From NCBI GenBank assembly GCA_031414595.1, contig JANNVX010000004.1, positions 1 through 64,000 of the forward strand: 64,000 bases of DNA, given 5' to 3'. The notes beneath the pieces are model-generated. The model saw only the letters and a program-made list of their open reading frames with translations, made no database searches and had not been told where the DNA came from. The translations under genes and the position numbers were made by a program. The stretch's first letter is position 1. Each line of letters opens with the position of its first letter. Below, piece by piece: positions 25,048-37,476 of this stretch. The stretch is from Deinococcales bacterium (lineage in GTDB: Bacteria; Deinococcota; Deinococci; Deinococcales; JAAFIG01).

Positions 25048-26689
25048 GCTGAGGACGGGTACAATTACGCCCAGCGTTCTTGGCGGAGTACATCGCTCGG
25101 TCAGCAATTTCAAAGAGCTTATTTTGATGCGCCACAGAAACATCGTCACACCAACCTAAACTGATTGTCACGCTTAAATCAGGGTGAATATCGGTCATGT
25201 CGGTACGGGCAATCACCTCCCGAATTCGTTCGCATAAACGGTAAACCGCTAAACCACCAATTCCGGGCAGAATTAAAGCAAATTCCTCACCACCATAGCG
25301 AGCCACCAAATCATGACTTCGGCACTGCTCAGATAAAATTTTGGCGATGCGTTGCAGCACCAAATCCCCAGCAGCATGTAAATACTTATCATTGACCAAC
25401 TTAAAATGATCGATGTCGAGCAAAACAATGCTCAGTTTAGAACGGGTTTCGGTGGCTTCTAAAAAAACTCGAGCCACAAAGGTTTCTAAAGTGCGGCGAT
25501 TGGCTAACCCAGTCAGGGAATCCTCGCTGGCTTGACGATCCAATTGCACATTTAAGCGGGTTAATTCCTCAGAACGCTGCTGATACCACAGGGCTTCACG
25601 GCGCACATTCTCACGTTCTATTTTAACCGCCAAAGCCTGAGATTGCCGTTCGGCACTTTCGGAACGCACCAACGAATCGAATTTATGAAACATTTCAAGA
25701 TGCTGTAAGGCTAACTCAAACTCAGAACGAGCCTTAAAAACCTTATAAAATTCTTTATGGACATCCGACAGGTATTTTTTAGCCGTATTGACTTCAAAAT
25801 GGGCTTTTGCTTGACTTAAATGTCCTAACGCCGCCTCGAATTGGCGTTGCAGTGCAAAAACCCGTCCAAATTGCAATTCGCATTCACCCAAAGACTCGAG
25901 CGACCCATAACGCTGGGCATGAACCATCCCTTGCCCAACTGCCAATTCTGCTGCCACAAAATCTTCTAAACCAGACATGATTTTAGACTGAATAATATAG
26001 GCTTCGGATAGTGTTGCCTGATCATCCGCCCGAATCAAATAAGTCAAAGCCAATTCGAGATGACCCAAGGCAAGCCTAAAATCCTCTTCTTTGGTTGGCT
26101 GATTTTTTTCTTCAATGATGGCATTGGCTAATGCCATTAGCGCACCACCCTCGGCTCGAGTCCGCCCCATTTTTTGCGCCAAAATAATTGCTTGATTGGC
26201 ATAATCAAAAGCAAAACTCCAATTTTTTAAGCACCGATGGGTCTGACTTAAGTAAATTAAGCTGGCTAAACGTCCACCATCAATGCCATGGGTATTGGCG
26301 ATTTCTAAGGCTTCTTCAAAAATACTTAAAGCATCAGAAAAGTCGCCCAAGTCTTGGTAAACCACGCCAATTTCCATCTGACACGCCAAGGCATTTGAAA
26401 AAGCACCATGCAAAAAATAAGTATCACAGGCTAAAAATAAATTTTTTAGCGCATTTTTAACATCAGACCCTCGAGCATGAACCTTACCAATCATTCGTAA
26501 GCCAAACGCATGAACTCGAGGGTTATCGTTGATTGAAAATTTCAATAACGCCTCACCAAGTTCACGCTGTTCTTCTTTGGTGCTTTCAGCAAACTCGATA
26601 TACACCGTATTGGTCAATAGCCGAATATCCTCATCAGATAAAATCTGCCGAAAACGATTGACGGCACTTTGAACATTAGTTTTCATCAT
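25037..26689 (-). CDS. TPR-containing diguanylate cyclase (GGDEF)
   Basis: N-terminal TPRs, coiled coil, DSLTGLANRR, DIDHFK.VND, I-site RSHD, active site GGEEF. Confidence 0.93.
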   Translation of the reverse strand: MMKTNVQSAVNRFRQILSDEDIRLLTNTVYIEFAESTKEEQRELGEALLKFSINDNPRVHAFGLRMIGKVHARGSDVKNALKNLFLACDTYFLHGAFSNALACQMEIGVVYQDLGDFSDALSIFEEALEIANTHGIDGGRLASLIYLSQTHRCLKNWSFAFDYANQAIILAQKMGRTRAEGGALMALANAIIEEKNQPTKEEDFRLALGHLELALTYLIRADDQATLSEAYIIQSKIMSGLEDFVAAELAVGQGMVHAQRYGSLESLGECELQFGRVFALQRQFEAALGHLSQAKAHFEVNTAKKYLSDVHKEFYKVFKARSEFELALQHLEMFHKFDSLVRSESAERQSQALAVKIERENVRREALWYQQRSEELTRLNVQLDRQASEDSLTGLANRRTLETFVARVFLEATETRSKLSIVLLDIDHFKLVNDKYLHAAGDLVLQRIAKILSEQCRSHDLVARYGGEEFALILPGIGGLAVYRLCERIREVIARTDMTDIHPDLSVTISLGWCDDVSVAHQNKLFEIADRAMYSAKNAGRNCTRPQLRD

Positions 26690-26721
26690 AAATAAAAGAG
26701 GTTTGGGACATGCCCAAACCT
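26690..26721 (-). terminator. Terminator-like hairpin between the peptide gene and the TPR-GGDEF gene
   Basis: Minus strand AGGTTTGGG-CATGT-CCCAAACCT followed by CTTTTATTT and then the GGDEF ATG. Confidence 0.7.
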
Positions 26722-26739
26722 AAAAGACCTTTATTAAAT

Positions 26740-26916
26740 CTAGCAATCTCCATTACAAAAACCCTTGGCTTTCGGTTTAGACGGTTCTGGTGAATCTGGT
26801 GGGTCTTGATACGCGCCGACTTCTGCTCTATCCCAACGATCACCTTTTGCCAATGCTGCTGGTAATGCAATTAAGCAAAACGCTAAACCAATTCCGAATA
26901 GCAACCTTTTAATCAT
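26740..26916 (-). CDS. Small secreted peptide precursor (58 aa), absent from the ORF track
   Basis: MIKRLLFGIGLAFCLIALPAALA-KGDRWDRAEVGAYQDPPDSPEPSKPKAKGFCNGDC*; GGGGG SD 6 nt upstream; Sec-type signal peptide with an ALA cleavage site. Confidence 0.8.
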   Translation of the reverse strand: MIKRLLFGIGLAFCLIALPAALAKGDRWDRAEVGAYQDPPDSPEPSKPKAKGFCNGDC

Positions 26917-26943
26917 TTTGTACCCCCGTTATAGTTCTTATAC

Positions 26944-26991
26944 CTTACCAAGTAAATACTTACAAAGACCTTACTAAAAAATTTTGTAAGA
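26944..26991. promoter_or_regulatory. CTTAC-rich operator candidate upstream of the peptide gene
   Basis: CTTACA(26959)-N20-TGTAAG(26985) plus extra CTTAC copies; resembles 19305-19334. Confidence 0.5.
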
Positions 26992-27089
26992 ATTACAATC
27001 CCATTGTTTCAGACAACAAGAATAAGAACTGATTGGATTTGCAAAAAATAATGTGAGAGACTTTATAAAAACCATGCCGCCATATCAAC

Positions 27090-27117
27090 TTGACACCAGA
27101 CAACAAAAGGCTATACT
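27090..27117 (+). promoter_or_regulatory. Promoter of the T-box leader
   Basis: TTGACA-16 bp-TATACT. Confidence 0.8.
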
Positions 27118-27123
27118 CGAGAC

Positions 27124-27375
27124 GGGAAGAGTACCGAGTAAAAGCCCCCACAGAGAAGTGTTCCATAAGCTGAGAAGAACACTGGGAAAGCCGCAAGGGA
27201 ACGTCACCCAAGCAACACCGAGGAAAGAAAGCCTAACCGCAATTAGAATCCTCTGGGTGCGCCCATCACAGCGCGTTTGAGCGCTCGAGACAACTCGAGA
27301 AAAGCGGTGGTAACGCGGGAGCGATTTTTTTCAAAAAACGCCATCTCGTCCGCAGATTTTACGGACGAGGTGTTT
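27124..27375 (+). ncRNA. T-box riboswitch, valine specifier
   Basis: AGTA/GAA specifier loop with GTC at 27203-27205; CAGAGA AG bulge; GCTGAGA distal loop; T-box GCGG-TGGTAAC-GCG (27304-27317) able to pair with CGTCCGC; competing hairpin CATCTCGTCCG/CGGACGAGGTG (27342-27372). Confidence 0.9.
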
Positions 27376-28332
27376 ATGTTCACAAAGTATGCCAATTTTG
27401 AAACCGCCCAAGCCCATGCCAAACAGAACGGTACTCGAGAACGTGTGGTGTGTTACATCACCAGAGGACTCGAGTTACTGGTTTTTCTTCACGAAGCCAA
27501 GTACCCAACGGCTGGAATTCAAGTTCCAGCCGGCGGACTCGAGGCAGGGGAGAGCATTTTTGAAGCTGCTATCAGGGAAGCCTTTGAAGAGACTGGTTTA
27601 CAGAACCTCGAGATTAAAACACACCTTGGTTCTGGACTGTACAAAAATGGCAAAAGGCACGAAATTTGGCATTTTGTCTGGCTAACGCTAGGGCAGGGCG
27701 AGGCATACTGTCTTGACCCTAAAGATGCACCTGTCGGGCTGGGTCGCCTCGCCCCTACGGTGAATGAATGGCAACATTTTGCTGAAAATAAATACACTTT
27801 TTACTGCCGTTTTGAACTGCTCGAGAATGTGGTTTTGCATTACGATATGGATGCTATGCTGCCCGAACTAGCACAGCGGCTTGGACTCGAGTTGCAAAGT
27901 CGGCAAACAAAGCCTCGCTCTGTTGCGATTTGTTACATCACACGCGGTTCGGAAATCCTGACTTTTAGCGGACATCCAGACGGCGGTATTGGCATACCTG
28001 CTGGTGGCATTGAAGACGGCGAAACGCCATTAGAAGCTGCCATGCGTGAAATTCTTGAGGAGAGCGGGCTGAGTCTCGAGAATCCGATTTACCTTGGACG
28101 GCAAGATTATTATTTTAAGGGGCAGCACCCAGAAAATGGTACGCCGCTCGAGTTTCTTGAGGACAGGTATTACTATTGGTTTAAGACACTCGAGCCGAGG
28201 GATTCTTGGGAGTGGGTTGTGTCGGATGGTGTTGGCGATAAGGGCAAGGTTTTTAAGCATTCGTTTGTGCCGCTCGAGGAAGCAAAGATTGATTGGGAAA
28301 TGGATGAGTTTATGGGAGAACTTAAGCAGTAG
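27376..28332 (+). CDS. Tandem NUDIX hydrolase
   Basis: Two Nudix boxes (GGLEAGESIFEAAIREAFEETGL; GGIEDGETPLEAAMREILEESGL); contains an in-frame REP-derived insert. Confidence 0.9.
   Translation: MFTKYANFETAQAHAKQNGTRERVVCYITRGLELLVFLHEAKYPTAGIQVPAGGLEAGESIFEAAIREAFEETGLQNLEIKTHLGSGLYKNGKRHEIWHFVWLTLGQGEAYCLDPKDAPVGLGRLAPTVNEWQHFAENKYTFYCRFELLENVVLHYDMDAMLPELAQRLGLELQSRQTKPRSVAICYITRGSEILTFSGHPDGGIGIPAGGIEDGETPLEAAMREILEESGLSLENPIYLGRQDYYFKGQHPENGTPLEFLEDRYYYWFKTLEPRDSWEWVVSDGVGDKGKVFKHSFVPLEEAKIDWEMDEFMGELKQ
27696..27758 (-). repeat. GTAG-type REP carrying a 39-bp internal insertion, in frame in the Nudix gene
   Basis: Minus strand GTAGGGGCGAG[39 bp]GTATGCCTCGCCC, the same arms as the purL REP. 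Confidence 0.8.
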
Positions 28333-28373
28333 CCCAACTAGCCAAAGCCTCAAGTATCGAGAAAAAAGGATGT

Positions 28374-28820
28374 ATGAACCAAAATTTGATCATCACAGAT
28401 GAATTTTCGAATCCAGATTCCGAAATGGAATACCTAAGTGATTATCCTTTAGATGCCAAAGCTCGAGCCAATGCCGAACAGTGCTGGCAATGCGGTGGTT
28501 GCTCGTATTTTTCACCATTTACTACAAGTTATGGTTTGTGTCACAACCAAAATTCAAGGCATTATCTCGAAACTGTTTTTGAGCATTTTACCTGTGCTGT
28601 TATTGATATTGAATCGTGGGAATACCATAGTTTTGGTGCTGGAGAAATCACAACTGAAATTCCAGAAAATGAATTGGATGCAAATGTTTGGGAAGCTGCC
28701 AAAAATGCGGTGCTTGCGTTGAAATCACATTATCCAGATGGTGAATCACATGATGCTGTTAAACTGGTTTATAGAGTTTTAGACAACAAAGTCAAATTTG
28801 TTCTTGAAAAGAAATTCTAG
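28374..28820 (+). CDS. Cys-rich hypothetical protein (DUF3027-like)
   Basis: QCGGCSYF...YGLC.N..S.....VFEHFTC pattern. Confidence 0.65.
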   Translation: MNQNLIITDEFSNPDSEMEYLSDYPLDAKARANAEQCWQCGGCSYFSPFTTSYGLCHNQNSRHYLETVFEHFTCAVIDIESWEYHSFGAGEITTEIPENELDANVWEAAKNAVLALKSHYPDGESHDAVKLVYRVLDNKVKFVLEKKF

Positions 28821-28860
28821 AGCCAAAGCATCAGGCTCGAGCCTCGAGAAAGAAGGAATC

Positions 28861-30789
28861 ATGAACCAAATTTCTATTGACAAAGCCGCCACAATTATGG
28901 GTGTTTCCTCTGCGACCATCAGAAATTGGGTCAAAGCTGGACTGATAGAGCCTATCAATGCGCGTCCTATCGCTTTTTCCGAAGAAAGTGTGGCGCTCTT
29001 AAAAAATCAAGTCTCGAGTGGTGCGCTACAAAAATTACAAACCAGAGCCAATAAAGCCCAATCGAAAAATGATTTTATTCCGCTCGAGTACAATTCAAAT
29101 TCTGGTTTTATCAGTATCTTAAACACCATTTTAGAACAATTTAAGAACCATTCTTTAGCCATTGAACCGCTTTTATTTTTAGCTGCTCTTTGTTGTCTCG
29201 AGCAGAATAGCGAACTCAAACGCCCAATTCAATCAGATGTTTTTGATTTGACCCAAGCAGAATTTACTCGAGTTTTGGTTAGACAAGAAATACTTGGCTG
29301 GCGAACTTCTCTGGGGGAAATAACCCATAAGGAACGTTACAAGGATATTTATGACTTACTTTTTACCAAAGACACAGAAGATTTACTGGGGATTTTATAC
29401 CAGTCTTTACGCAGCGAAGGCAATAAATCGAATTTGGGTTCGTATTACACCCCAACGCATTTGGTGCAAGATGCCTTACAATCTGTTCGGCTCGAGACGG
29501 TCAGTAATTTCCTAGACCCTTGTTGTGGCACTGGAAAATATTTAATCGAGGCAGCAAAAACTTTTTCTTTGCCACCAGAATCTATTTATGGTTTTGATAT
29601 TGACCAATTGGCTGTACAGATAGCCCGTGTCAATCTGCTGATGCACTATAAAAAAGCAGAATTTTCCCCCAATATTTTTTGTCTGGATGCACTTTCTGAC
29701 TTAGCCAATGGAGACTTTTTTTGCACCACAAATCACCTGATGGGGTTTTTTGATTTGATTGCCACCAATCCACCTTGGGGAGCGTATAAAAACTCGAGTA
29801 TTCCAGTTCAGTTTCAGAATGTCCTCGAGTCCAGCGAAACCTATTCGATGTTTATTCTCAAATCCATGCAATTGCTGAAAAAAAGTGGAGCGCTTTCTTT
29901 TATTTTGCCTGAATCTATTCTAAAAATCCGAACTCACAGCGACATTCGAGAATTTATTGTTAAAAACAGTACAATGATAAAAATAATTCAACTCGGACGA
30001 CAATTTAGTGGGGTTTTTACACCAGTTGTTCGCTTAGATTTGAAAAATGAAATCCCAAACAACAATATGCTTGAACTGCATGACGAAAATAAATTGGTTA
30101 CTCGAGTTGGTCAAAACAGATTTCTATACAATACCGATTATATTTTTGATACTCGAGTAGATGATACCGTAGAAGCCTTAATTCAAAAAATTTATGCAAA
30201 ACCGCATTTGACTTTACAGGGTCATTCAGAGTGGGCGCTTGGGATTGTCACAGGCGATAACACTAAGTATTTACTCGAGCAGCCAACTCCCACTGCCGAA
30301 GCCATTTATAGAGGCATGGATATTAGCCCTTTTTACTTAACTGCTGCAAAAACATTTATCGAATTTACGCCAAGCCAGTTCCAACAAGTCGCTCCAGAAC
30401 GGTTTTTTAGAGCAGATGAAAAACTGATTTACAAATTTATTTCAAAGAAATTGGTTTTTGCATTCGATGATACCCAAGCCCTAACGCTAAACAGCGCCAA
30501 TATCCTGATTCCAAAATTGCCGAACATGAGCATCAAAGTTACAATGGCATTTTTGAACTCGAGTGTATTTCAGTTCTTATTTACCAAAAAATTCGCCACC
30601 CATAAGGTGCTGCGTGGAGACCTTGAAAAATTACCATTCCCGAATCTCGAGCCAGATGTCCACAATCAACTCGAGCAGCTTTTAGATAATGTGCTGGAAA
30701 CAAAAATAGTGAGCGCAGAAATAGACAATTTGATATTTCAGATTTTTGAACTCACCCAAGAAGAAATAGATTTGATAGAGGGGACATAA
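28861..30789 (+). CDS. Type II N6-adenine DNA methyltransferase (gamma class, TaqI-C-like specificity domain) with an N-terminal HTH
   Basis: GSYYTP, LDPCCGTG, NPPW, FILPES and LGIVTGDN; N-terminus GVSSATIRNWVK; AAGGA RBS before ATG 28861. Confidence 0.9.
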   Translation: MNQISIDKAATIMGVSSATIRNWVKAGLIEPINARPIAFSEESVALLKNQVSSGALQKLQTRANKAQSKNDFIPLEYNSNSGFISILNTILEQFKNHSLAIEPLLFLAALCCLEQNSELKRPIQSDVFDLTQAEFTRVLVRQEILGWRTSLGEITHKERYKDIYDLLFTKDTEDLLGILYQSLRSEGNKSNLGSYYTPTHLVQDALQSVRLETVSNFLDPCCGTGKYLIEAAKTFSLPPESIYGFDIDQLAVQIARVNLLMHYKKAEFSPNIFCLDALSDLANGDFFCTTNHLMGFFDLIATNPPWGAYKNSSIPVQFQNVLESSETYSMFILKSMQLLKKSGALSFILPESILKIRTHSDIREFIVKNSTMIKIIQLGRQFSGVFTPVVRLDLKNEIPNNNMLELHDENKLVTRVGQNRFLYNTDYIFDTRVDDTVEALIQKIYAKPHLTLQGHSEWALGIVTGDNTKYLLEQPTPTAEAIYRGMDISPFYLTAAKTFIEFTPSQFQQVAPERFFRADEKLIYKFISKKLVFAFDDTQALTLNSANILIPKLPNMSIKVTMAFLNSSVFQFLFTKKFATHKVLRGDLEKLPFPNLEPDVHNQLEQLLDNVLETKIVSAEIDNLIFQIFELTQEEIDLIEGT

Positions 30790-31529
30790 TGGAAATCTTA
30801 AAACAACATTTAGACAATTTACTCGAGCAATTAGAGCAAGAAAAACGCGAAGAAATCATGCAGCGATTAGATGATTTACTTTCGGTCTACCCTTTTAACG
30901 AATTTGAATTTTTAATCGCAACACTGATGGGAAATAACAAAATTTTATTAAACGATTACTACGATCTACGCGACGAATACTTAGCTCGGAATATGTACTT
31001 GCATCTTTTTGAAATGACTTCACCCCGAGGATTTGGAGAAAGTTGGGCGCAAGGTCACTTAAAAGAAATCGTTCCAGAACTGGTTAAGCCTACTCAGAAA
31101 TTAGACTCGAGCTATTCAGGACAATACGATTTTCTACTCGGCGACATCAAAATCGAAGTGAAAGCCTCTCGAGCCGTAGATTTTAATAGCCAAGAAGCAC
31201 TGTATGTCAAAGCCCTAGCCTCGAGTTCAGGAAAACGCTTCGATATGAACTTCCAGCAAGTCAAACCCGCTTGTGCCGATGTTTTTATTTGGATTGGCGT
31301 TTGGCGAGATGTGATTCGGTACTGGGTACTGGCATCCAACGAAATTGCAAACAACAAGTATTACTCGACTGGTCAACACCGAGGTAACACAGGCGAAGGG
31401 CAAATACACCTCAAAGACGATAATATCAGTAGTTTCGCAGCTTTTGAAACCAGCCCAAGGGATTTACTCGAGAAAATAAGGAAAGCCCATCGGAGGCAAC
31501 ATCAAAAAACTCGAGGACGGAGAAAATAG
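30789..31529 (+). CDS. Probable cognate restriction endonuclease (PD-(D/E)XK)
   Basis: YD...IEVKAS motif and FQQVKP; 1-nt overlap with the MTase stop. Confidence 0.75.
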   Translation: MEILKQHLDNLLEQLEQEKREEIMQRLDDLLSVYPFNEFEFLIATLMGNNKILLNDYYDLRDEYLARNMYLHLFEMTSPRGFGESWAQGHLKEIVPELVKPTQKLDSSYSGQYDFLLGDIKIEVKASRAVDFNSQEALYVKALASSSGKRFDMNFQQVKPACADVFIWIGVWRDVIRYWVLASNEIANNKYYSTGQHRGNTGEGQIHLKDDNISSFAAFETSPRDLLEKIRKAHRRQHQKTRGRRK

Positions 31530-31641
31530 TAGTAAAAATACACAGTGCCGAGCGCAGTGCCAAGGCTTAGGTTTCTCGAGGAAAGGATTTATGAATAATT
31601 TCGACCCAACCATCAAACCAAATTGTCAAAAAATACCCTCT

Positions 31642-31761
31642 CACAGGGCGACCACAAGCGACCATGCCCGTAAGGTGCGTGTTTATGGTCAAGATAGGGT
31701 CGCCCTGTGGTTGGATTGCAAATTTGTGTCCAACCGTAGGGGAGGGTCTTGTACTCTCCCT
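31642..31761. repeat. Intergenic REP cluster (REP with nested 39-bp element, plus a second GTAG REP)
   Basis: CACAGGGCGACC...GGTCGCCCTGTG hairpin (31642-31709) and GTAGGGGAGGGTCTTGTACTCTCCC (31736-31760). Confidence 0.75.
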
Positions 31762-31811
31762 GACCAGCCAAAGCCCCAAGCTCGAGCCTCGAGAAAACTA
31801 AGGATAAAGAA

Positions 31812-32585
31812 ATGAATTTGAAAAAAGCTAGAAAACATTTGAAAGAATGGGCAGAACAAGGCTCTGGTTATGTGCAAAAACTTCATTTGGAAAACATTGA
31901 TGAAGTGAGTGACTTACTATGTTTCGTAGCTGGATACTGCTTTGAACTTTCTCGAGAAAAATTTTACGACATAAAACCTAAATCAAATTGGCACTGGAGA
32001 ATCAATCATAAGAGAACAATATCTCACGGAACTGTATATTGGGATGAACTATTGATAGATGTGGTTGATGCTGAAAACTATGAACCCCAATATCAGTTTC
32101 TTTTAGGTATATATTTTTTATTGCAGAGTAGTGCAATCTATTCAAGTTCACTTTATCAGATTTGGCTAGGGGGCGAAGAATTTCAGACAATGGTGATTGA
32201 AGATGAAGTCCCGATAGCGATTCTGCCGCCAGACTCGCAAAAAATAATTTATTGGTATGAAACTGATTTCGCTGAAAGTGATTTTTCCCCTGAATTCATG
32301 CCTGCACCAAATATGTTTGCCCGAATTTATTGGCAGGATTTTTTAAGAAAAAAGTATCCAAAAAAATCTACTTGTTTTGATTGCGGTTCAGACAATGCGA
32401 CTCATGCACATCATGATGGCAAAGAAGTATCTGAACTTGCAAAAGAGGGGATTTGGCATCGTCCAGATGAACACAAAGTAGTAATGCTTTGTGCAGAATG
32501 TCATGTAAAACGTCACGAAGGTACGAAATCAGCAAATTTCTTAAAAGTATTTACTGTTGGTCGTCAAAAAAGGAAACAACCATGA
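31812..32585 (+). CDS. Hypothetical protein with a C-terminal Zn-finger HNH-like domain
   Basis: CFDC..THAHH..LCAECHVKRH; ATGA overlap with valS. Confidence 0.65.
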   Translation: MNLKKARKHLKEWAEQGSGYVQKLHLENIDEVSDLLCFVAGYCFELSREKFYDIKPKSNWHWRINHKRTISHGTVYWDELLIDVVDAENYEPQYQFLLGIYFLLQSSAIYSSSLYQIWLGGEEFQTMVIEDEVPIAILPPDSQKIIYWYETDFAESDFSPEFMPAPNMFARIYWQDFLRKKYPKKSTCFDCGSDNATHAHHDGKEVSELAKEGIWHRPDEHKVVMLCAECHVKRHEGTKSANFLKVFTVGRQKRKQP

Positions 32586-35215
32586 ATGAATTACCCGCCA
32601 AATACGAACCATCGTCTGTCGAATCTTCTTGGTCTGAACTCTGGGCTAAACCTGGTACGTTTCGTGCCGATGCTACCTCGAGCAAACCTGCTTTTACCAT
32701 TGTTATCCCACCGCCTAATGTAACGGGTAGCCTCCACCTTGGTCATGCGCTCGATAACACAATTATTGATGTCCTGACCCGCTTTAAGCGCATGGCGGGC
32801 TTCGAGGCGCTGTATTTGCCGGGGACTGACCATGCGGGAATCAGTACCCAAGTGCTGGTCGAAAAAGAACTTGCCCTCGAGGGGCTGCACAAAAACGACC
32901 TCGGGCGCGAGAAATTCCTCGAGCGAGTCTGGGCATTCAAAGAAAAAAATGGCGGCACGATTCTCAAGCAACTGACCCGCCTTGGTATCTCTGCCGATTG
33001 GTCTCGAGAACGTTTTACCATGGATGCTGGGCTTTCCAAAGCCGTGCGACGTACTTTTGTCGAATACGTAGCGAAGGGCATGGCGTACCGTGGCGAGAAA
33101 ATTGTCAATTGGGACCCTGTTGCCCAAACCGTTCTGTCTGACCTCGAAGTTGACCGTGAGGATCGTCAGGGCAAAATGTACACTTTATCCTACGCCCTCG
33201 AGGATGGAAATGGCGTAATCAACGTGGCAACTGTCCGTCCTGAAACGATTTTTGCTGACCAAGCCGTGGCGGTTCATCCCGATGATGCGCGGTTCTCGAG
33301 CCTTGTTGGGCAAAATGTGCGGATTCCGCTAACCGATAGGCTGATTCCAATTATTGCTGACTCGAGTGTTGAAATGGATTTTGGAACGGGTTGTCTTAAA
33401 ATCACCCCAGCCCACGACCCAACCGATTTTGAAATTGGTTTGCGCCACAACTTAGCCACGCCCAGTGTGATTGATAAATTTGCCAAACTGACTTCCGACC
33501 TTGTGCCAGAAGAATTTAGGGGTATCGAGCGTTTCGCTGCCCGTAAAGCTGTGGTCAAGGCACTCGAGGCATCAGGCGCACTGCTCGAGGCAAAAGATTA
33601 TAAAGTCAGTATTGGCATTTCGGAGCGCACCAAAGAACCAATTGAGCCAATGGTCATGACCCAGTGGTGGTGCAAAATGGATAAGCCCGCCAAGCAAGTT
33701 CTCGAGGCACTGGAAGATGGCAGAATAAAAACTGTGCCTGAGCGCTACACCAAGGTCAATCGTGATTGGCTCGAGAATATCCGTGAATGGGCGATTGGGC
33801 GGCAACTCTGGTGGGGGCATCAAATTCCAGCTTGGTACGATGCGGATGGTAAAATCTATGTGCCAGACCTCGAGAATCCTGATTTGGATTGTGACCAAGA
33901 CCCTCGTTACGCGCATCTGAATCTGACTCGAGACCCTGATGTTTTCGATACGTGGTTTTCGAGCGCACTCTGGAATTTTAGTACCATGGGCTACCCTGAC
34001 CAAACCGAGGATTTAGCCAAGTTCTACCCGAATAGTGTGCTGGTGACAGGTTATGACATCCTGTTTTTCTGGGTAGCACGGATGCAAATGGCGGGCTTTG
34101 AATTTACGGGTCAAGCGCCGTTTCATACGGTCATGCTGCATGGTTTGTACTTGGATGCCAAGGGTCAGAAGATGAGTAAATCCAAGAATAATGGCATTGA
34201 CCCACTCGAGTTAATGGATAAGTACGGCGTGGATGGTTGTCGTTTTGCATGGGCGTATTTGTCTACGGGTGGGCAGGACATCAAGCACGATGAACGCCGT
34301 TACGAAATGGGACGAAATTTTTCCAATAAACTCTGGAATGCGTCGCGTTTTGCAATGATGAATCTCGAGCTTGGGCATTCGGAAATGGGCATGAGCTTAG
34401 GCGCTGCGCCAGCCAGTTTTGGTGCGACCCTGGCGGATGCTTGGATTGTCTCGAGGCTGTCCGAAACCATTGCAACTGCCACGGCACAACTCGAGGCGTA
34501 TGACCTTGGCGCTTCAATTCGGACCATTTACAGTTTTACTTGGGATGATTTTTGTGATTGGTACATCGAAGCGGCTAAACCAGCTTTGAAAGCACAAAAT
34601 CCTGTTACCCAAACCACGATTAAACGGGTTCTCGAGGCGATTCTGAAATTGCTTCATCCGTTCATGCCATTTATCACTTCAGAAATTTATGCAGCATTAA
34701 ACCCTAAGCATGGACAATTGGCGTTTGAACCTTTTCCTCGAGCCGATGAATTTGCGGTGGATACAGCTTCACTCGAGGAATTCGAGAAAGTCAAAAATGC
34801 AATTACGGCTGTGCGGGTCTTGCGGAATGAATTGATGATTCCGCCAATGCAGATGCTGACCGTGGCTGTGGACGGGGTGAACTCTGGTGCAGTAGCCAAG
34901 AACCTCGAGACGTTTACTGGACTTGCCAAAGCCGAACTGGGCGAGGTGAGCGGCAAAATTATTAACTCGGTCGCGCCTGGACTCGAGGTGCTACTAGCAC
35001 TCGAGGGGCTGATAGATACTACCGAATACGTGGCTCGGGGCAAGAAAAAAGTGGTTGAACTCGAGAAGCAAGTGGCACAAGCCAAAGGTAAGTTAAGCAA
35101 TGAGAATTTCTTTAAGAATGCCCCACAAGAAGTTCTGCTCGAGGAACAAAGGCGGATAGAGGATTTTGGAATGCAGTTAGAGCGCTTGCAAAAAGTTTTG
35201 GCGCAATTTGCTTAA
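32582..35215 (+). CDS. valS: Valine--tRNA ligase
   Basis: PPPNVTGSLHLGH (HIGH), KMSKS, DTWFSSAL and C-terminal coiled coil. Confidence 0.98.
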   Translation: MNELPAKYEPSSVESSWSELWAKPGTFRADATSSKPAFTIVIPPPNVTGSLHLGHALDNTIIDVLTRFKRMAGFEALYLPGTDHAGISTQVLVEKELALEGLHKNDLGREKFLERVWAFKEKNGGTILKQLTRLGISADWSRERFTMDAGLSKAVRRTFVEYVAKGMAYRGEKIVNWDPVAQTVLSDLEVDREDRQGKMYTLSYALEDGNGVINVATVRPETIFADQAVAVHPDDARFSSLVGQNVRIPLTDRLIPIIADSSVEMDFGTGCLKITPAHDPTDFEIGLRHNLATPSVIDKFAKLTSDLVPEEFRGIERFAARKAVVKALEASGALLEAKDYKVSIGISERTKEPIEPMVMTQWWCKMDKPAKQVLEALEDGRIKTVPERYTKVNRDWLENIREWAIGRQLWWGHQIPAWYDADGKIYVPDLENPDLDCDQDPRYAHLNLTRDPDVFDTWFSSALWNFSTMGYPDQTEDLAKFYPNSVLVTGYDILFFWVARMQMAGFEFTGQAPFHTVMLHGLYLDAKGQKMSKSKNNGIDPLELMDKYGVDGCRFAWAYLSTGGQDIKHDERRYEMGRNFSNKLWNASRFAMMNLELGHSEMGMSLGAAPASFGATLADAWIVSRLSETIATATAQLEAYDLGASIRTIYSFTWDDFCDWYIEAAKPALKAQNPVTQTTIKRVLEAILKLLHPFMPFITSEIYAALNPKHGQLAFEPFPRADEFAVDTASLEEFEKVKNAITAVRVLRNELMIPPMQMLTVAVDGVNSGAVAKNLETFTGLAKAELGEVSGKIINSVAPGLEVLLALEGLIDTTEYVARGKKKVVELEKQVAQAKGKLSNENFFKNAPQEVLLEEQRRIEDFGMQLERLQKVLAQFA

Positions 35216-35220
35216 AAGAA

Positions 35221-35261
35221 TTTACCTCACGCACTATCTAAAATTAGGTGCGTGAGGTAAA
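35221..35261. other. 14-bp-stem hairpin after valS
   Basis: TTTACCTCACGCAC...GTGCGTGAGGTAAA; no U-tract on the plus strand. Confidence 0.55.
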
Positions 35262-35322
35262 AATCAATTGGGATAAAACTTAACTCAAAAAGCAAGTGAT
35301 TAGATTTAGAGGAAAACAAAAC

Positions 35323-36345
35323 ATGATACTGAGTGGACGTTACCTTGGTGAAATTATTGATGCTTTTGGCACTATCGCCGAACGCGCCGAACTTCGTGCC
35401 AAAATTGGATTTACGGATTTACATCGTGTCCTTGAAGATTTTTTCATGAATATCCTAAATGAATTGGATAACCTGAGTCTGACAAATACCAATAGAGAAG
35501 CTGCTAATAGTGCTGGAATAGATCTGTACGATGCCAATTCAAAAATCGGTATTCAAATCACAACGGTTAGTAGTTCGGACAAAATAAATAATACTCTACG
35601 TGTGGTTCACGAACAAAATAATACTCTCAAAAGTTCTAATGTCGAAGCGTTGTACGTGTTAATTATTGGCAAAAAACAAGGCTCATATAAACTAGATTCT
35701 ACGCTGTGTGAGGCGCTTGATTTCAATGAAAAAGACAATATTTGGGATATTGTTACATTGTCCCGAAAACTTATTGGAATTAAACCTGATGTACTTGAGA
35801 GCATTTATAAGTTTGTCATGCGTGAACTTACTCGAGTAAGAATAGAACTTGAATTACCTGACTCTAATGGCGAATTTCCCACCGATTTAGGGCAATACAT
35901 GGAAGTAAGCCCATCAAATGAATTAGGAGAATGTAAGAAGCTCAAAGAATTCTGCACTGCTAATGGGTGGGACAATGGTTTTGAAGAGGCTATTTCTGAG
36001 CTAAGACTTTACTTTCAAAAATTAAGCTCATTGCCAAGAATTACCCGACAAGTGCTTGGTGAAATTATTGATAATCGTGAACCTAATCAATCCAAAATAT
36101 ATGTTATTTGGGAAAAATTTCGACGAATTTGTACATATCCTGAACTTGATACGGAATTTAACATTCTTGTATACGACAATTATCTTACACGAAACATTCA
36201 TGAAGAGGAACGAATTATCACAGTTCACGTTAAGGGTGATGGGGATAGGATTCTAGGGTATCTTGAGCCTTTCCTACAGCGGGAAAGTAAAACTTTCAAT
36301 AAATTATTTTCAACTTTTGATTTCTCAATCTTTGAGAACCCATAA
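35323..36345 (+). CDS. SMEK domain-containing protein (putative defence nuclease)
   Basis: N-terminal D.H..LEDFF..ILN...L.N.N....N..GIDL.D....IGIQIT pattern; AT-rich. Confidence 0.75.
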   Translation: MILSGRYLGEIIDAFGTIAERAELRAKIGFTDLHRVLEDFFMNILNELDNLSLTNTNREAANSAGIDLYDANSKIGIQITTVSSSDKINNTLRVVHEQNNTLKSSNVEALYVLIIGKKQGSYKLDSTLCEALDFNEKDNIWDIVTLSRKLIGIKPDVLESIYKFVMRELTRVRIELELPDSNGEFPTDLGQYMEVSPSNELGECKKLKEFCTANGWDNGFEEAISELRLYFQKLSSLPRITRQVLGEIIDNREPNQSKIYVIWEKFRRICTYPELDTEFNILVYDNYLTRNIHEEERIITVHVKGDGDRILGYLEPFLQRESKTFNKLFSTFDFSIFENP

Positions 36346-36496
36346 ATTCTGTTACTAATTTTCAAATGTATAGTTTCGCATTTCGCATAATTTCACGTTT
36401 TTGCACGTCCGTTAGAACAACATTTTTTATGCGAAAAATCCCTCATTTACTTCATAAATTGCAATTCACTTATTTCACTTGTGCTATACTCGAGCT

Positions 36497-36916
36497 ATGC
36501 GACCGATTGTTCTGTCTGCCCAAGCCGCCCAGACTGCTCGAGAAGTTGGGCAACAACTCCTATCCGGACAACTCGCTTTTCACTCGAGCAATGGCGAAGT
36601 TACGTTATTGCCACAAGAAACCTTGCGTGTTTTCCAAGAAGTTCTCGAGCAATTGGGGCAAGAACGCTCTGTGGTGGTTTTACCGCTTGATACAGAACTT
36701 AGTACCTTTGAAGCTGCCGATGTGCTGAATGTCTCACGTCCCTTTGTGACCAAACTACTCGAGCGCGGCGAAATGCCGTTTCGGATGGTTGGGGCGCACC
36801 ATCGGGTACTACTGGCGGATGTGTTGAAATACCAATCTGAGCAACGTCAGCGCAGTCTAATTGCGATGCAGGAATTAGCCGAACTCTCACAAGAACTTGG
36901 GTTGTACGATTCGTGA
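36497..36916 (+). CDS. Excisionase-family HTH protein (antitoxin/regulator of the PIN gene)
   Basis: ELSTFEAADVLNVSRPFVTKLLERGEMPF.MVGAHHRV; leaderless TATACT at 36485. Confidence 0.88.
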   Translation: MRPIVLSAQAAQTAREVGQQLLSGQLAFHSSNGEVTLLPQETLRVFQEVLEQLGQERSVVVLPLDTELSTFEAADVLNVSRPFVTKLLERGEMPFRMVGAHHRVLLADVLKYQSEQRQRSLIAMQELAELSQELGLYDS

Positions 36917-37476
36917 TTGCGGTTCTCGATGCTAATGTGTTGTACTCGGCACGTTTACGAGATTTTTTTATTTGGCTGGCATTACAAAATGCGTACCAAG
37001 CCCATTGGACAGCCGAAATCCAAGCCGAATGGAAACGTAATTTATTGCAAAATCGACCTGAAATTCTTGTGGCTAATCTCGAGCGTACCCAAAAACTGAT
37101 GGATAGGGCTTTACCTGATGCGTTACTCGAGAATGTGCCTCGGCTCGAGGTTATTCTTCCAGATACGAACGACATTCATGTTCTTGAGGCAGCCATTTAT
37201 GCACAAGCGGGTTATGTGGTGACAAACAATTTACGAGACTTTCCTCAAGCCATCCTCGAACCTTTTGGTGTGATTGCTTTGGGTCCTGATGACTTTGTGA
37301 TGCGTATTCTTGAACGTACACCAAATCTTGTGTTGAAGGCGATTCAAATGCAGGTGGCGAATTTACAACGCCCTCCAATTGGCATCAATACCATGTTGCT
37401 GCAACTCGAGGAACAGGGATTGGTGAAAGTTGTGGATTGGTTGCGCGGACAATTGTTACCAGAAAGTCGTGCTTGA
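36913..37476 (+). CDS. PIN domain protein (toxin)
   Basis: AVLDANVLY, LPD.ND.HVL.AA and VTNNLRDFP. Confidence 0.9.
   Translation: MIAVLDANVLYSARLRDFFIWLALQNAYQAHWTAEIQAEWKRNLLQNRPEILVANLERTQKLMDRALPDALLENVPRLEVILPDTNDIHVLEAAIYAQAGYVVTNNLRDFPQAILEPFGVIALGPDDFVMRILERTPNLVLKAIQMQVANLQRPPIGINTMLLQLEEQGLVKVVDWLRGQLLPESRA

Follow-up and report, generated by a model that had tools for sequence, protein, structure and literature searches.

Variable, defence-rich gene arrays between T-box leaders and aminoacyl-tRNA synthetase genes in an uncultured family of Deinococcales

To our knowledge, the regulation of defence islands is poorly understood, and T-box leaders have been thought to control amino-acid-related genes only. 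Canonical T-box leaders of aminoacyl-tRNA synthetase genes (RF00230; for example, those of Bacillales valS) combine a Stem I that carries the specifier with a UGGN bulge and competing antiterminator and terminator helices. As an earlier note on the DNA analysed here had stated, they normally abut the synthetase gene: in a Firmicutes control of 80 valS loci, of which 6 were left out (3 cut matches, 3 from Deinococcales), the T-box core lay 67 to 373 nucleotides (nt) before valS in 58 of 74 loci, and the remaining 16 gave no regular-expression match to the core. A T-box leader also heads the multi-gene ilv-leu operon of Bacillus subtilis. The same arrangement is described for metICFE-mdh of Staphylococcus aureus in passages of PMC7913692. 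Small hypothetical open reading frames (ORFs) stand behind Val, Ala, Gly, and Thr T-boxes of streptococci in Table 2 of Wels et al. 2008 (PMC2494555). For Deinococcus radiodurans, the listing in that survey gives only Ile and Gly T-boxes, so that, as far as this listing goes, the Val leader of the order is absent from it. Here we describe such a Val T-box leader in a 64,000-nt stretch of a Deinococcales genome (the window). It has the specifier Stem I, the UGGN bulge, and the competing helices of canonical leaders; in contrast to them, its synthetase gene, valS, lies 5.2 kb off, unrelated genes stand between, and its score is below the Rfam cut-off.

From the end of the leader to the start of valS we counted 5,226 nt, in agreement with the distance given in the earlier note, and all intervening genes are on the + strand. 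We propose that a T-box attenuator sensing tRNA-Val(GAC) would head one long codirectional unit made up of the leader, a Nudix hydrolase gene, cassettes, and valS. The stretch from the Nudix gene to valS would have turned into a site of cassette accretion in the window's family, and the stretch from the Ile T-box to ileS likewise. Compact, co-oriented defence and toxin-antitoxin modules would have been gained, swapped, and lost there, each arriving, in the window's genus, behind a shared junction. Polymerases that start at the T-box promoter and pass the attenuator when tRNA-Val is uncharged would then read the cassettes and valS at least in part. Judging from sequence features, we consider this read-through from the leader promoter into the cassettes and valS somewhat probable.

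The genome holding the window (G000) is a metagenome-derived assembly of 4.49 Mb in 120 contigs, 94% complete, from an uncultured Deinococcales family. We compared 19 genomes of this family and used four other (sister) families of the order as the outgroup. Relatives are labelled G001 to G016 and so on, genera g2 to g7, contigs C, and loci L. The gap was defined as the distance from leader end to synthetase start, taken from the valS and T-box positions on one contig.

At gathering thresholds, Rfam returned no RNA family anywhere in the window. A permissive Infernal scan, a check that the earlier note had proposed, did find RF00230, although at 61 bits, below the gathering score of 93 bits, which is an operational threshold. 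The match is full-length (model positions 1 to 219 of 219), with a whole-genome E value of 1.4e-12. In just 4 of 41 genomes of the order were there T-box matches above the cut-off, though leaders precede glyS, ileS, and valS. On the sequence evidence the Val T-box is real despite its low score, which is normal for the clade. The specifier GUC (27203 to 27205, in the context GAA-C-GUC-A at 27199 to 27206) is invariant in all 18 aligned Val leaders, and the flanking bases vary. This alignment covered 5 families of the order, with G009 left out, and compensatory changes, counted when both partners differed in one sequence or more, were present in 32 of the 49 predicted pairs. RNAalifold on the same 18 leaders recovered Stem I, the middle stems, and the antiterminator (27304 to 27352). 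The T-box bulge UGGU lies at 27308 to 27311, and the genome encodes a tRNA-Val(GAC) at C18:21599-21673 whose A73-CCA end complements it. The promoter and complete T-box that the earlier note had read from the letters, with their GUC specifier and a bulge matched to tRNA-Val, were thus borne out; both promoter hexamers are kept in the genus alignment.

The antiterminator was also aligned by cmscan, and an 11-bp terminator hairpin uses the same strand, CUCGUCCGC, which makes the two helices mutually exclusive. The 3' arm of this hairpin includes the Shine-Dalgarno (SD) sequence of the Nudix gene, GAGGUG, and its tail includes the Nudix AUG. In all aligned members of the window's genus the tail is an interrupted U run. 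Outside the genus, an equivalent hairpin is followed by a clean run of 5 to 7 U, with a separate SD and start codon, an arrangement that points to classical attenuation in the family. In the window's genus, the hairpin can, as its pairing indicates, additionally hide the Nudix ribosome-binding site.

The genes of the unit are listed in Table 1. As had been predicted, the first encodes a tandem Nudix hydrolase (PF00293 in 2 stretches), and its GC content (0.487) and CTCGAG density (10.4 per kb) are core-gene-like. Searches bearing on its substrate gave generic matches alone, all below curated cut-offs. The 148-amino-acid (aa) product of the next gene, p148, had been labelled DUF3027-like; this could not be confirmed, as there was no match in Pfam, NCBIfam, or PADLOC and the Atlas lead was 0.81 at most. 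An N-terminal stretch 75% identical to p148 is present in the array of G007. The DNA methyltransferase (MTase) has N6_Mtase (3.1e-21), Eco57I (3.3e-20), and TaqI_C (2.1e-20) domains (PF02384, PF07669, and PF12950), a PADLOC MTase_II match (1.8e-105), and an NPPWG motif in its translation. Its helix-turn-helix (HTH) match (HTH_17/MerR) reached ∼24 bits, below the cut-off, and a search bearing on its specificity matched generic gamma-class adenine MTases only. The start of the restriction endonuclease (REase) candidate overlaps the MTase stop by 1 nt; PADLOC places it in REase_II, and neither Pfam nor the PDB sequences (E up to 1) gave a match. The MTase and the adjacent REase candidate thus have, as predicted proteins, the make-up of a type II restriction-modification (R-M) system, as the earlier note had supposed.

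A noncoding spacer of 282 nt separates the REase gene from p257, and a 74-aa ORF that runs across it (31591 to 31815), with no family match, is probably spurious. The HNH-like label proposed for p257 agrees with its Cys/His motif and with its nearest Atlas clusters, which are HNH (0.93, a lead), but found no counterpart in Pfam. The TGA stop of p257 falls inside the ATGA of the valS start, the overlap that had been noted, and valS is the sole valyl-tRNA synthetase gene of G000 (1 match). Directly after valS stand a gene for a SMEK-domain protein (PADLOC Aga_REase-PNTD, 7.3e-33), which also follows valS in G001 and G003, and an HTH_17/PIN_3 pair; together they suggest that the defence-like region extends past valS. 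At the valS stop itself, a perfect hairpin (TTACCTCACGCAC...GTGCGTGAGGTAA, 35215 to 35262) was not flagged by our terminator scan. It has an A run 3' on the + strand and is T-rich on the other side, and it may be an operon end or an opposite-strand terminator.

Table 1. Features of the Val T-box operon, in window coordinates
Feature	Position	Strand	Details
Sigma-70-like promoter	27090..27117	+	TTGACA, 16-nt spacer, TATACT; 11/12 consensus matches, best of 20 sites in 26600-36600
Val T-box leader, RF00230	27110..27356	+	Permissive scan of 26900-27500, 61 bits vs cut-off 93, E 7.9e-13
Terminator/sequestrator hairpin, including tail	27342..27380	+	11-bp stem CAUCUCGUCCG / CGGACGAGGUG; hairpin proper 27342-27372
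Tandem Nudix hydrolase gene, first of operon	27376..28332	+	318 aa; PF00293, E 3.5e-29
Junction copy 1 (variant)	28336..28361	+	AACTAGCCAAAGCCTCAAGTATCGAG, then SD
Cassette gene p148	28374..28820	+	148 aa, Cys-rich; GC 0.374
Junction copy 2	28821..28848	+	AGCCAAAGCATCAGGCTCGAGCCTCGAG, then SD
Type II N6-adenine DNA MTase gene	28858..30789	+	643 aa; N-terminal HTH, TaqI_C-type specificity domain
Type II REase candidate gene	30789..31529	+	246 aa; PADLOC REase_II PDLC03414, 6.8e-68
REP-like hairpin spacer	31530..31761	+	CGTAGGGG...GCCC family with nested insert
Junction copy 3	31762..31793	+	GACCAGCCAAAGCCCCAAGCTCGAGCCTCGAG, then SD
Cassette gene p257, HNH-like	31812..32585	+	257 aa; C-terminal CxxC...HxHH...CxxCH; GC 0.362; 1 CTCGAG site
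valS	32582..35215	+	tRNA-synt_1 1.9e-129, Anticodon_1, Val_tRNA-synt_C
Defence-like genes after valS	35296..37476	+	SMEK-domain 35296-36345, HTH_17 36479-36916, PIN_3 36913-37476

Comparison of the spacing in relatives, as the earlier note had suggested, showed a Val gap of 33 to 956 nt in 14 genomes of the four other families (33 to 132 nt in 7 genomes, 596 to 647 nt in 4 Deinococcus-like genomes of g7, and 936 to 956 nt in 3). Each g7 gap holds one single-domain Nudix gene, and the widest of these gaps hold one inserted gene each in the two genomes examined of the three. Within the window's family, the gap ranged from 220 nt to ∼10.1 kb. In 10 genomes it measured 220, 863, 1789, 2145, 2678, 3084, 3485, 3993, 4084, and 5226 nt, and the largest value belongs to the congener G003, whose leader is cut by a contig end.

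Throughout the window's family and in g7, the gene after the Val T-box is a Nudix gene, which argues that it is an old member of the operon and not cargo; the T-box-Nudix-valS unit is found in cultured Deinococcus-like genomes as well. The domain number follows the genus, with one domain in g7, g2, and g4, two in the window's genus, and three in g3 and g5, and the T-box-linked proteins measure 125 to 199, 318 to 327, and 420 to 479 aa, respectively (L036, L037, L041, L042, and L045). The earlier claim that cargo was inserted between leader and valS therefore holds for the cassettes, on the variation in gap and gene set and on their low GC content, and fails for the Nudix gene. In the congener G002, with its 220-nt gap, the T-box and valS are kept and the cargo is gone; a 20-codon ORF there encodes the first ∼14 Nudix codons, a remnant which suggests that the short gap is a secondary deletion. 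It had also been proposed that linkage to an essential gene protects the cargo from loss. This is contradicted by the distribution of the genes, as the REase is present in 3 of 19 family genomes, p257 in 1 of 19, and G002 has lost the Nudix gene with all cargo.

The content between the Nudix gene and valS differs even among close relatives. Where G000 has p148, the R-M genes, and the HNH-like gene, G006 has one 354-aa protein with an HExxH motif (L034 3508-4572, − strand; GC content, 0.285; no CTCGAG), which gave a weak match to the Lit phage exclusion protease (E, 0.0085). The array of G003 encodes a 212-aa protein, a DUF2281 antitoxin with PIN, R-M, PDC-S02 (DUF1016), HicB, HEC-01A/B, and DRT UG13b. 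Those of G007 and G004 hold a YhcG/DUF1016 nuclease, an AAA_21 ATPase, DUF2281 with PIN, and proteins without assignment, and in g5 and g2 genomes we found HicB, PIN, DUF1016, and further unassigned proteins. One shared gene before valS was considered and rejected, as the 9 valS-adjacent proteins do not form a single alignable family (mean column identity, 22%). Judged by gene content, the interval behaves as a defence hotspot, with differing defence systems at one position between conserved genes in relatives.

A wrong join in the metagenome assembly, linking a T-box-Nudix fragment to cargo and valS, would produce a similar picture in any single genome, and the 120 contigs of G000 and its CTCGAG, REP, and junction repeats, which could mislead assemblers, leave some room for it. 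We regard such an artefact as extremely improbable: leader, cargo, and valS share one contig in 10 family genomes, one of them a single-contig genome of 5.1 Mb, and gene order is coherent and reading frames are intact.

The composition of the cargo is foreign. Against a genome GC content of 0.472, the Nudix gene, valS, and ileS have 0.49 to 0.50, and cargo has 0.29 to 0.41 (window cargo, 0.36 to 0.41). The synthetase-adjacent cassette is the most foreign each time (p257, 0.362; DRT of G003, 0.33; Lit-like gene of G006, 0.285; p196 of the Ile array, 0.293), a hint that new cassettes may enter at the synthetase-proximal end. CTCGAG density is 5.18 per kb in the genome (23,235 sites) and 9 to 11 per kb in the Nudix gene, valS, and ileS, and p196 and the Lit-like gene have no site. 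It is important to note that this count adds little to the case for foreignness, because low GC content itself lowers the chance of a CTCGAG. The palindrome is highly iterated in the window, whose 64 kb hold 364 matches on the two strands together (182 sites) versus ∼8 expected. As the TaqI_C-type R-M pair occurs in only 3 of 19 family genomes, it is not the cause of this family-wide palindrome.

In the window's genus, each cassette is preceded by a junction of 30 to 70 nt. It often opens with a repetitive extragenic palindromic (REP) hairpin (CCGTAGGGGC...GCCC) and continues with AACCAGCCAAAGCCCCAAGC(TCGAGC)CTCGAG and an SD rich in purines, after which comes the start codon. When up to 3 mismatches were allowed, the Val arrays of five genomes yielded 13 distinct copies, which stand in front of unrelated genes. 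The exact 19/20-mer occurs in 8 copies in the 19 family genomes, and all 8 are inside the interval from Val leader to valS. A genome-wide repeat was thus rejected for the full motif, and 20 metagenome matches to the 19/20-mer were set aside as chance, given their coding contexts, CTCGAG densities of at most 1.4 per kb, and the lack of a Nudix or ValRS gene nearby. The first half of the junction, together with REP, is also present at a few ordinary loci, and the REP hairpin is found genome-wide (CCGTAGGGGC, 57 copies versus 8.6 expected). A REP-like family, CGTAGGGGCGAGGCATGCCTCGCCC, occurs at 31640 to 31760 of the window and at ∼100 other genome sites, and some REP copies carry a nested loop insert of ∼40 nt (GCGACCATGCCCGTAAGGTGCGCGTTTATGGTCAAGAA).

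An integron was considered and rejected, as the best TIGR02249 match in the genome reached 56.9 bits against a cut-off of 265 and lies on another contig. Family searches returned no integrase, transposase, or recombinase family between 19 and 46 kb of the window. The genome has one marginal Y1_Tnp match (23 bits, C98:106848-107018), and REP-flanked cassettes could have been moved by a RAYT-type transposase.

The variable content between conserved flanks in close relatives, the lack of integrase and transposase families in that interval, and the occurrence of REP and of the first junction half beside ordinary genes would all be expected if the Nudix-to-valS stretch were an ordinary recombination hotspot. 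In that case, the flanks would serve homologous recombination after DNA uptake, REP elements would accumulate, and the T-box would be incidental. This explanation would leave several observations unaccounted for: the co-orientation of all supported cargo, the restriction of the full 19/20-mer junction to one locus, and the invasion of two of the three T-box operons with the Gly operon never affected (20 genomes). We hold it to be a serious alternative but one that probably falls short. As it is compatible with read-through, it competes with our proposal over meaning more than over mechanism.

The other T-box operons bear on this point. G000 carries three T-boxes, for Val, Ile, and Gly. The Gly leader, with the bulge UGGA to match the U73 of tRNA-Gly, adjoins glyS (33 to 129 nt in 20 genomes). 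The Ile leader (C18:17358-17562, − strand; L063 8359-8563) lies 4,264 nt before ileS. The Ile gap measured 89 to 4,326 nt in 14 family genomes, versus 76 to 132 nt in 5 outside genomes computed, and the AUC specifier is invariant in 9 aligned Ile leaders. In G000, this gap holds, all co-oriented, two paralogous proteins without assignment, a Septu pair, and two small ORFs. PtuA (2.2e-119) and PtuB (8e-93) of Septu are side by side on C18 (PADLOC), and the pair is also in the Ile gap of G005, G007, G003, and G016, one of which belongs to another genus. Septu is reported, in passages of PMC13096335, to cleave a tRNA; in this light, its position behind a tRNA sensor is suggestive. The two paralogous proteins (123 and ∼150 to 250 aa; L063 7199-8332, − strand, C18), whose genes are the first two behind the Ile T-box, share the motif LEW..NQ..L...IE...NP.W..P..LHS and had no Pfam, PADLOC, or NCBIfam match. 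The ∼200-aa proteins found before ileS in relatives are just 18 to 24% identical to the one in G000.

Co-transcription of the Val unit is suggested by co-orientation, tight spacing, the ATGA overlap, and the lack of consensus terminators and strong internal promoters. Simple consensus scans over 26600 to 36600 gave no terminator-like site on the + strand (all 7 found were on the − strand), in line with the earlier statement that no clear U-tailed terminator lies between the genes. Apart from the leader's own promoter, they gave no promoter-like site above 9/12, and the + strand from 30545 to 33150 is free of such sites altogether. The DNA directly upstream of valS is nonhomologous in G000, G003, and G006, and no junction repeat precedes valS. 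With no consensus terminator, no strong promoter, and no conserved sequence upstream of valS, the cassettes and valS would most likely be read, at least partly, from the T-box promoter. Further, the leader is conserved before the 10-kb array, and the deletion in G002 re-joins leader and valS, both of which also argue for read-through.

Across 22 Val and Ile intervals, greedy ORF calling with a minimum length of 80 aa found 62 co-oriented ORFs and 5 in antisense, and 3 of the latter lie under Pfam-supported co-oriented genes. Co-oriented ORFs cover 65 to 100% of 18 of the 22 intervals. The remaining four (46% in the Ile interval of G006 and 0% in three gaps shorter than 900 nt) reflect calling artefacts or very short gaps; for instance, the gap of G010, at 0% by script, holds a Pfam-supported Nudix gene missed by ORF calling.

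Several observations weigh against a single read-through unit. A search for RNA sequencing runs over 27000 to 35300 listed none. The numbers of promoter and terminator sites in the consensus scans were no higher than in shuffled sequence, and sites scoring 9/12 lie in AT-rich cargo, within the p148 and MTase genes (28603, 29946, 29960, and 30517). The N-terminal HTH of the MTase is a feature that, in other R-M systems, accompanies self-regulation by way of an own promoter. The REP-rich spacer at 31530 to 31761 is strongly structured (z = -4.1), and transcripts might end or be processed there; no U run follows its hairpins. At the leader, the U tail of the genus is weak (UUUAUGUU) and the Nudix SD is sequestered by the hairpin, so that control could be mainly translational and limited to the Nudix gene. 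Finally, the Ile T-box of G000 and G005 is without ∼50 nt of Stem I (the 5' half and the distal part) and for this reason scores only 27 bits, a loss that could reflect weaker selection for control by the leader after cargo has moved in. The truncated leader still has its AUC specifier, its T-box sequence, and a terminator with a U tail, and it represents either a working form that has been shortened or a leader in decay.

Taken together, these points would fit decoupled units, in which the T-box controls the Nudix gene alone, by attenuation, SD sequestration, or both, and the cassettes and valS use promoters inside the cargo; the insertion of cargo would then have freed valS from control by tRNA-Val. 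We find this doubtful. No promoter-like site exceeds 9/12, and there is none on the + strand where a valS promoter would be needed. The valS-adjacent DNA is different in each of the congeners examined, so that a promoter for an essential gene would have to arrive with every new cassette. Moreover, decoupling would not predict cassettes that are strictly co-oriented and tightly spaced, a Val leader fully conserved in the genomes with the largest arrays, or a deletion that re-joins leader and valS.

If the unit is co-transcribed, as we propose, expression of the cassettes would be coupled to tRNA charging, in line with the induction of the R-M pair by uncharged tRNA-Val that the earlier note had inferred; such coupling may be useful or only tolerated. 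A bolder form of the idea, which we rate as unlikely, is that the Val and Ile T-box operons are integrase-less, integron-like platforms in which promoterless cassettes are captured behind a locus-specific junction and transcribed only on uncharged tRNA, each new cassette landing next to the essential synthetase gene. Were this true, tRNA damage induced by phage, or translation stress, would switch on the stacked defences, several of which act on tRNA or translation (Septu, PIN toxins, HicA-type toxins, and a Lit-like protease). In any case, two of the three T-box operons in one bacterial family are variable docks between a tRNA-charging sensor and an essential gene. If read-through were confirmed, they would be a natural example of immune genes whose expression is tied to the cell's translation status, and would give a rule for such docks: co-oriented, terminator free, and equipped with a shared ribosome-binding adaptor. 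The junction repeat also provides a handle for finding further cassettes, including many unannotated ones. Because the leaders score below the Rfam cut-off, they escape standard annotation, and this may be why the arrangement had not been noticed before.

In the literature searched, a limited collection of papers, we found no report of defence cargo in T-box operons, and the passages of the TBDB paper on downstream genes mention no such cargo. The multi-gene T-box operons are alike in that one leader controls several kilobases by attenuation, so distance alone is no obstacle to the control proposed here. They hold genes of the same amino-acid pathway, whereas the genes at the window locus have defence, toxin-antitoxin, and nuclease functions and change from one congener to the next. 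The streptococcal cases, as far as the table cited above presents them, are alike in having a nonsynthetase ORF behind a T-box of the synthetase type and differ in being single small ORFs without defence content. Sedentary chromosomal integrons have one upstream promoter, compact co-oriented cassettes, a repeated junction, and interspersed toxin-antitoxin cassettes. In contrast to these, the window array is without an integron integrase, its junction precedes each cassette, and an essential gene closes it. Defence islands and integration hotspots, in the parts of Hochhauser et al. 2023 (PMC10121019) that describe them, likewise have variable defence sets at the same position between conserved genes. 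The window array differs from such hotspots in lying inside a riboswitch-type operon before an essential gene, with all genes co-oriented and no mobile-element gene seen. Thus, T-box control of long operons, small ORFs behind T-boxes, and defence hotspots were each already known, and what is new, against the literature searched, is a dock for defence and toxin-antitoxin genes inside T-box operons.

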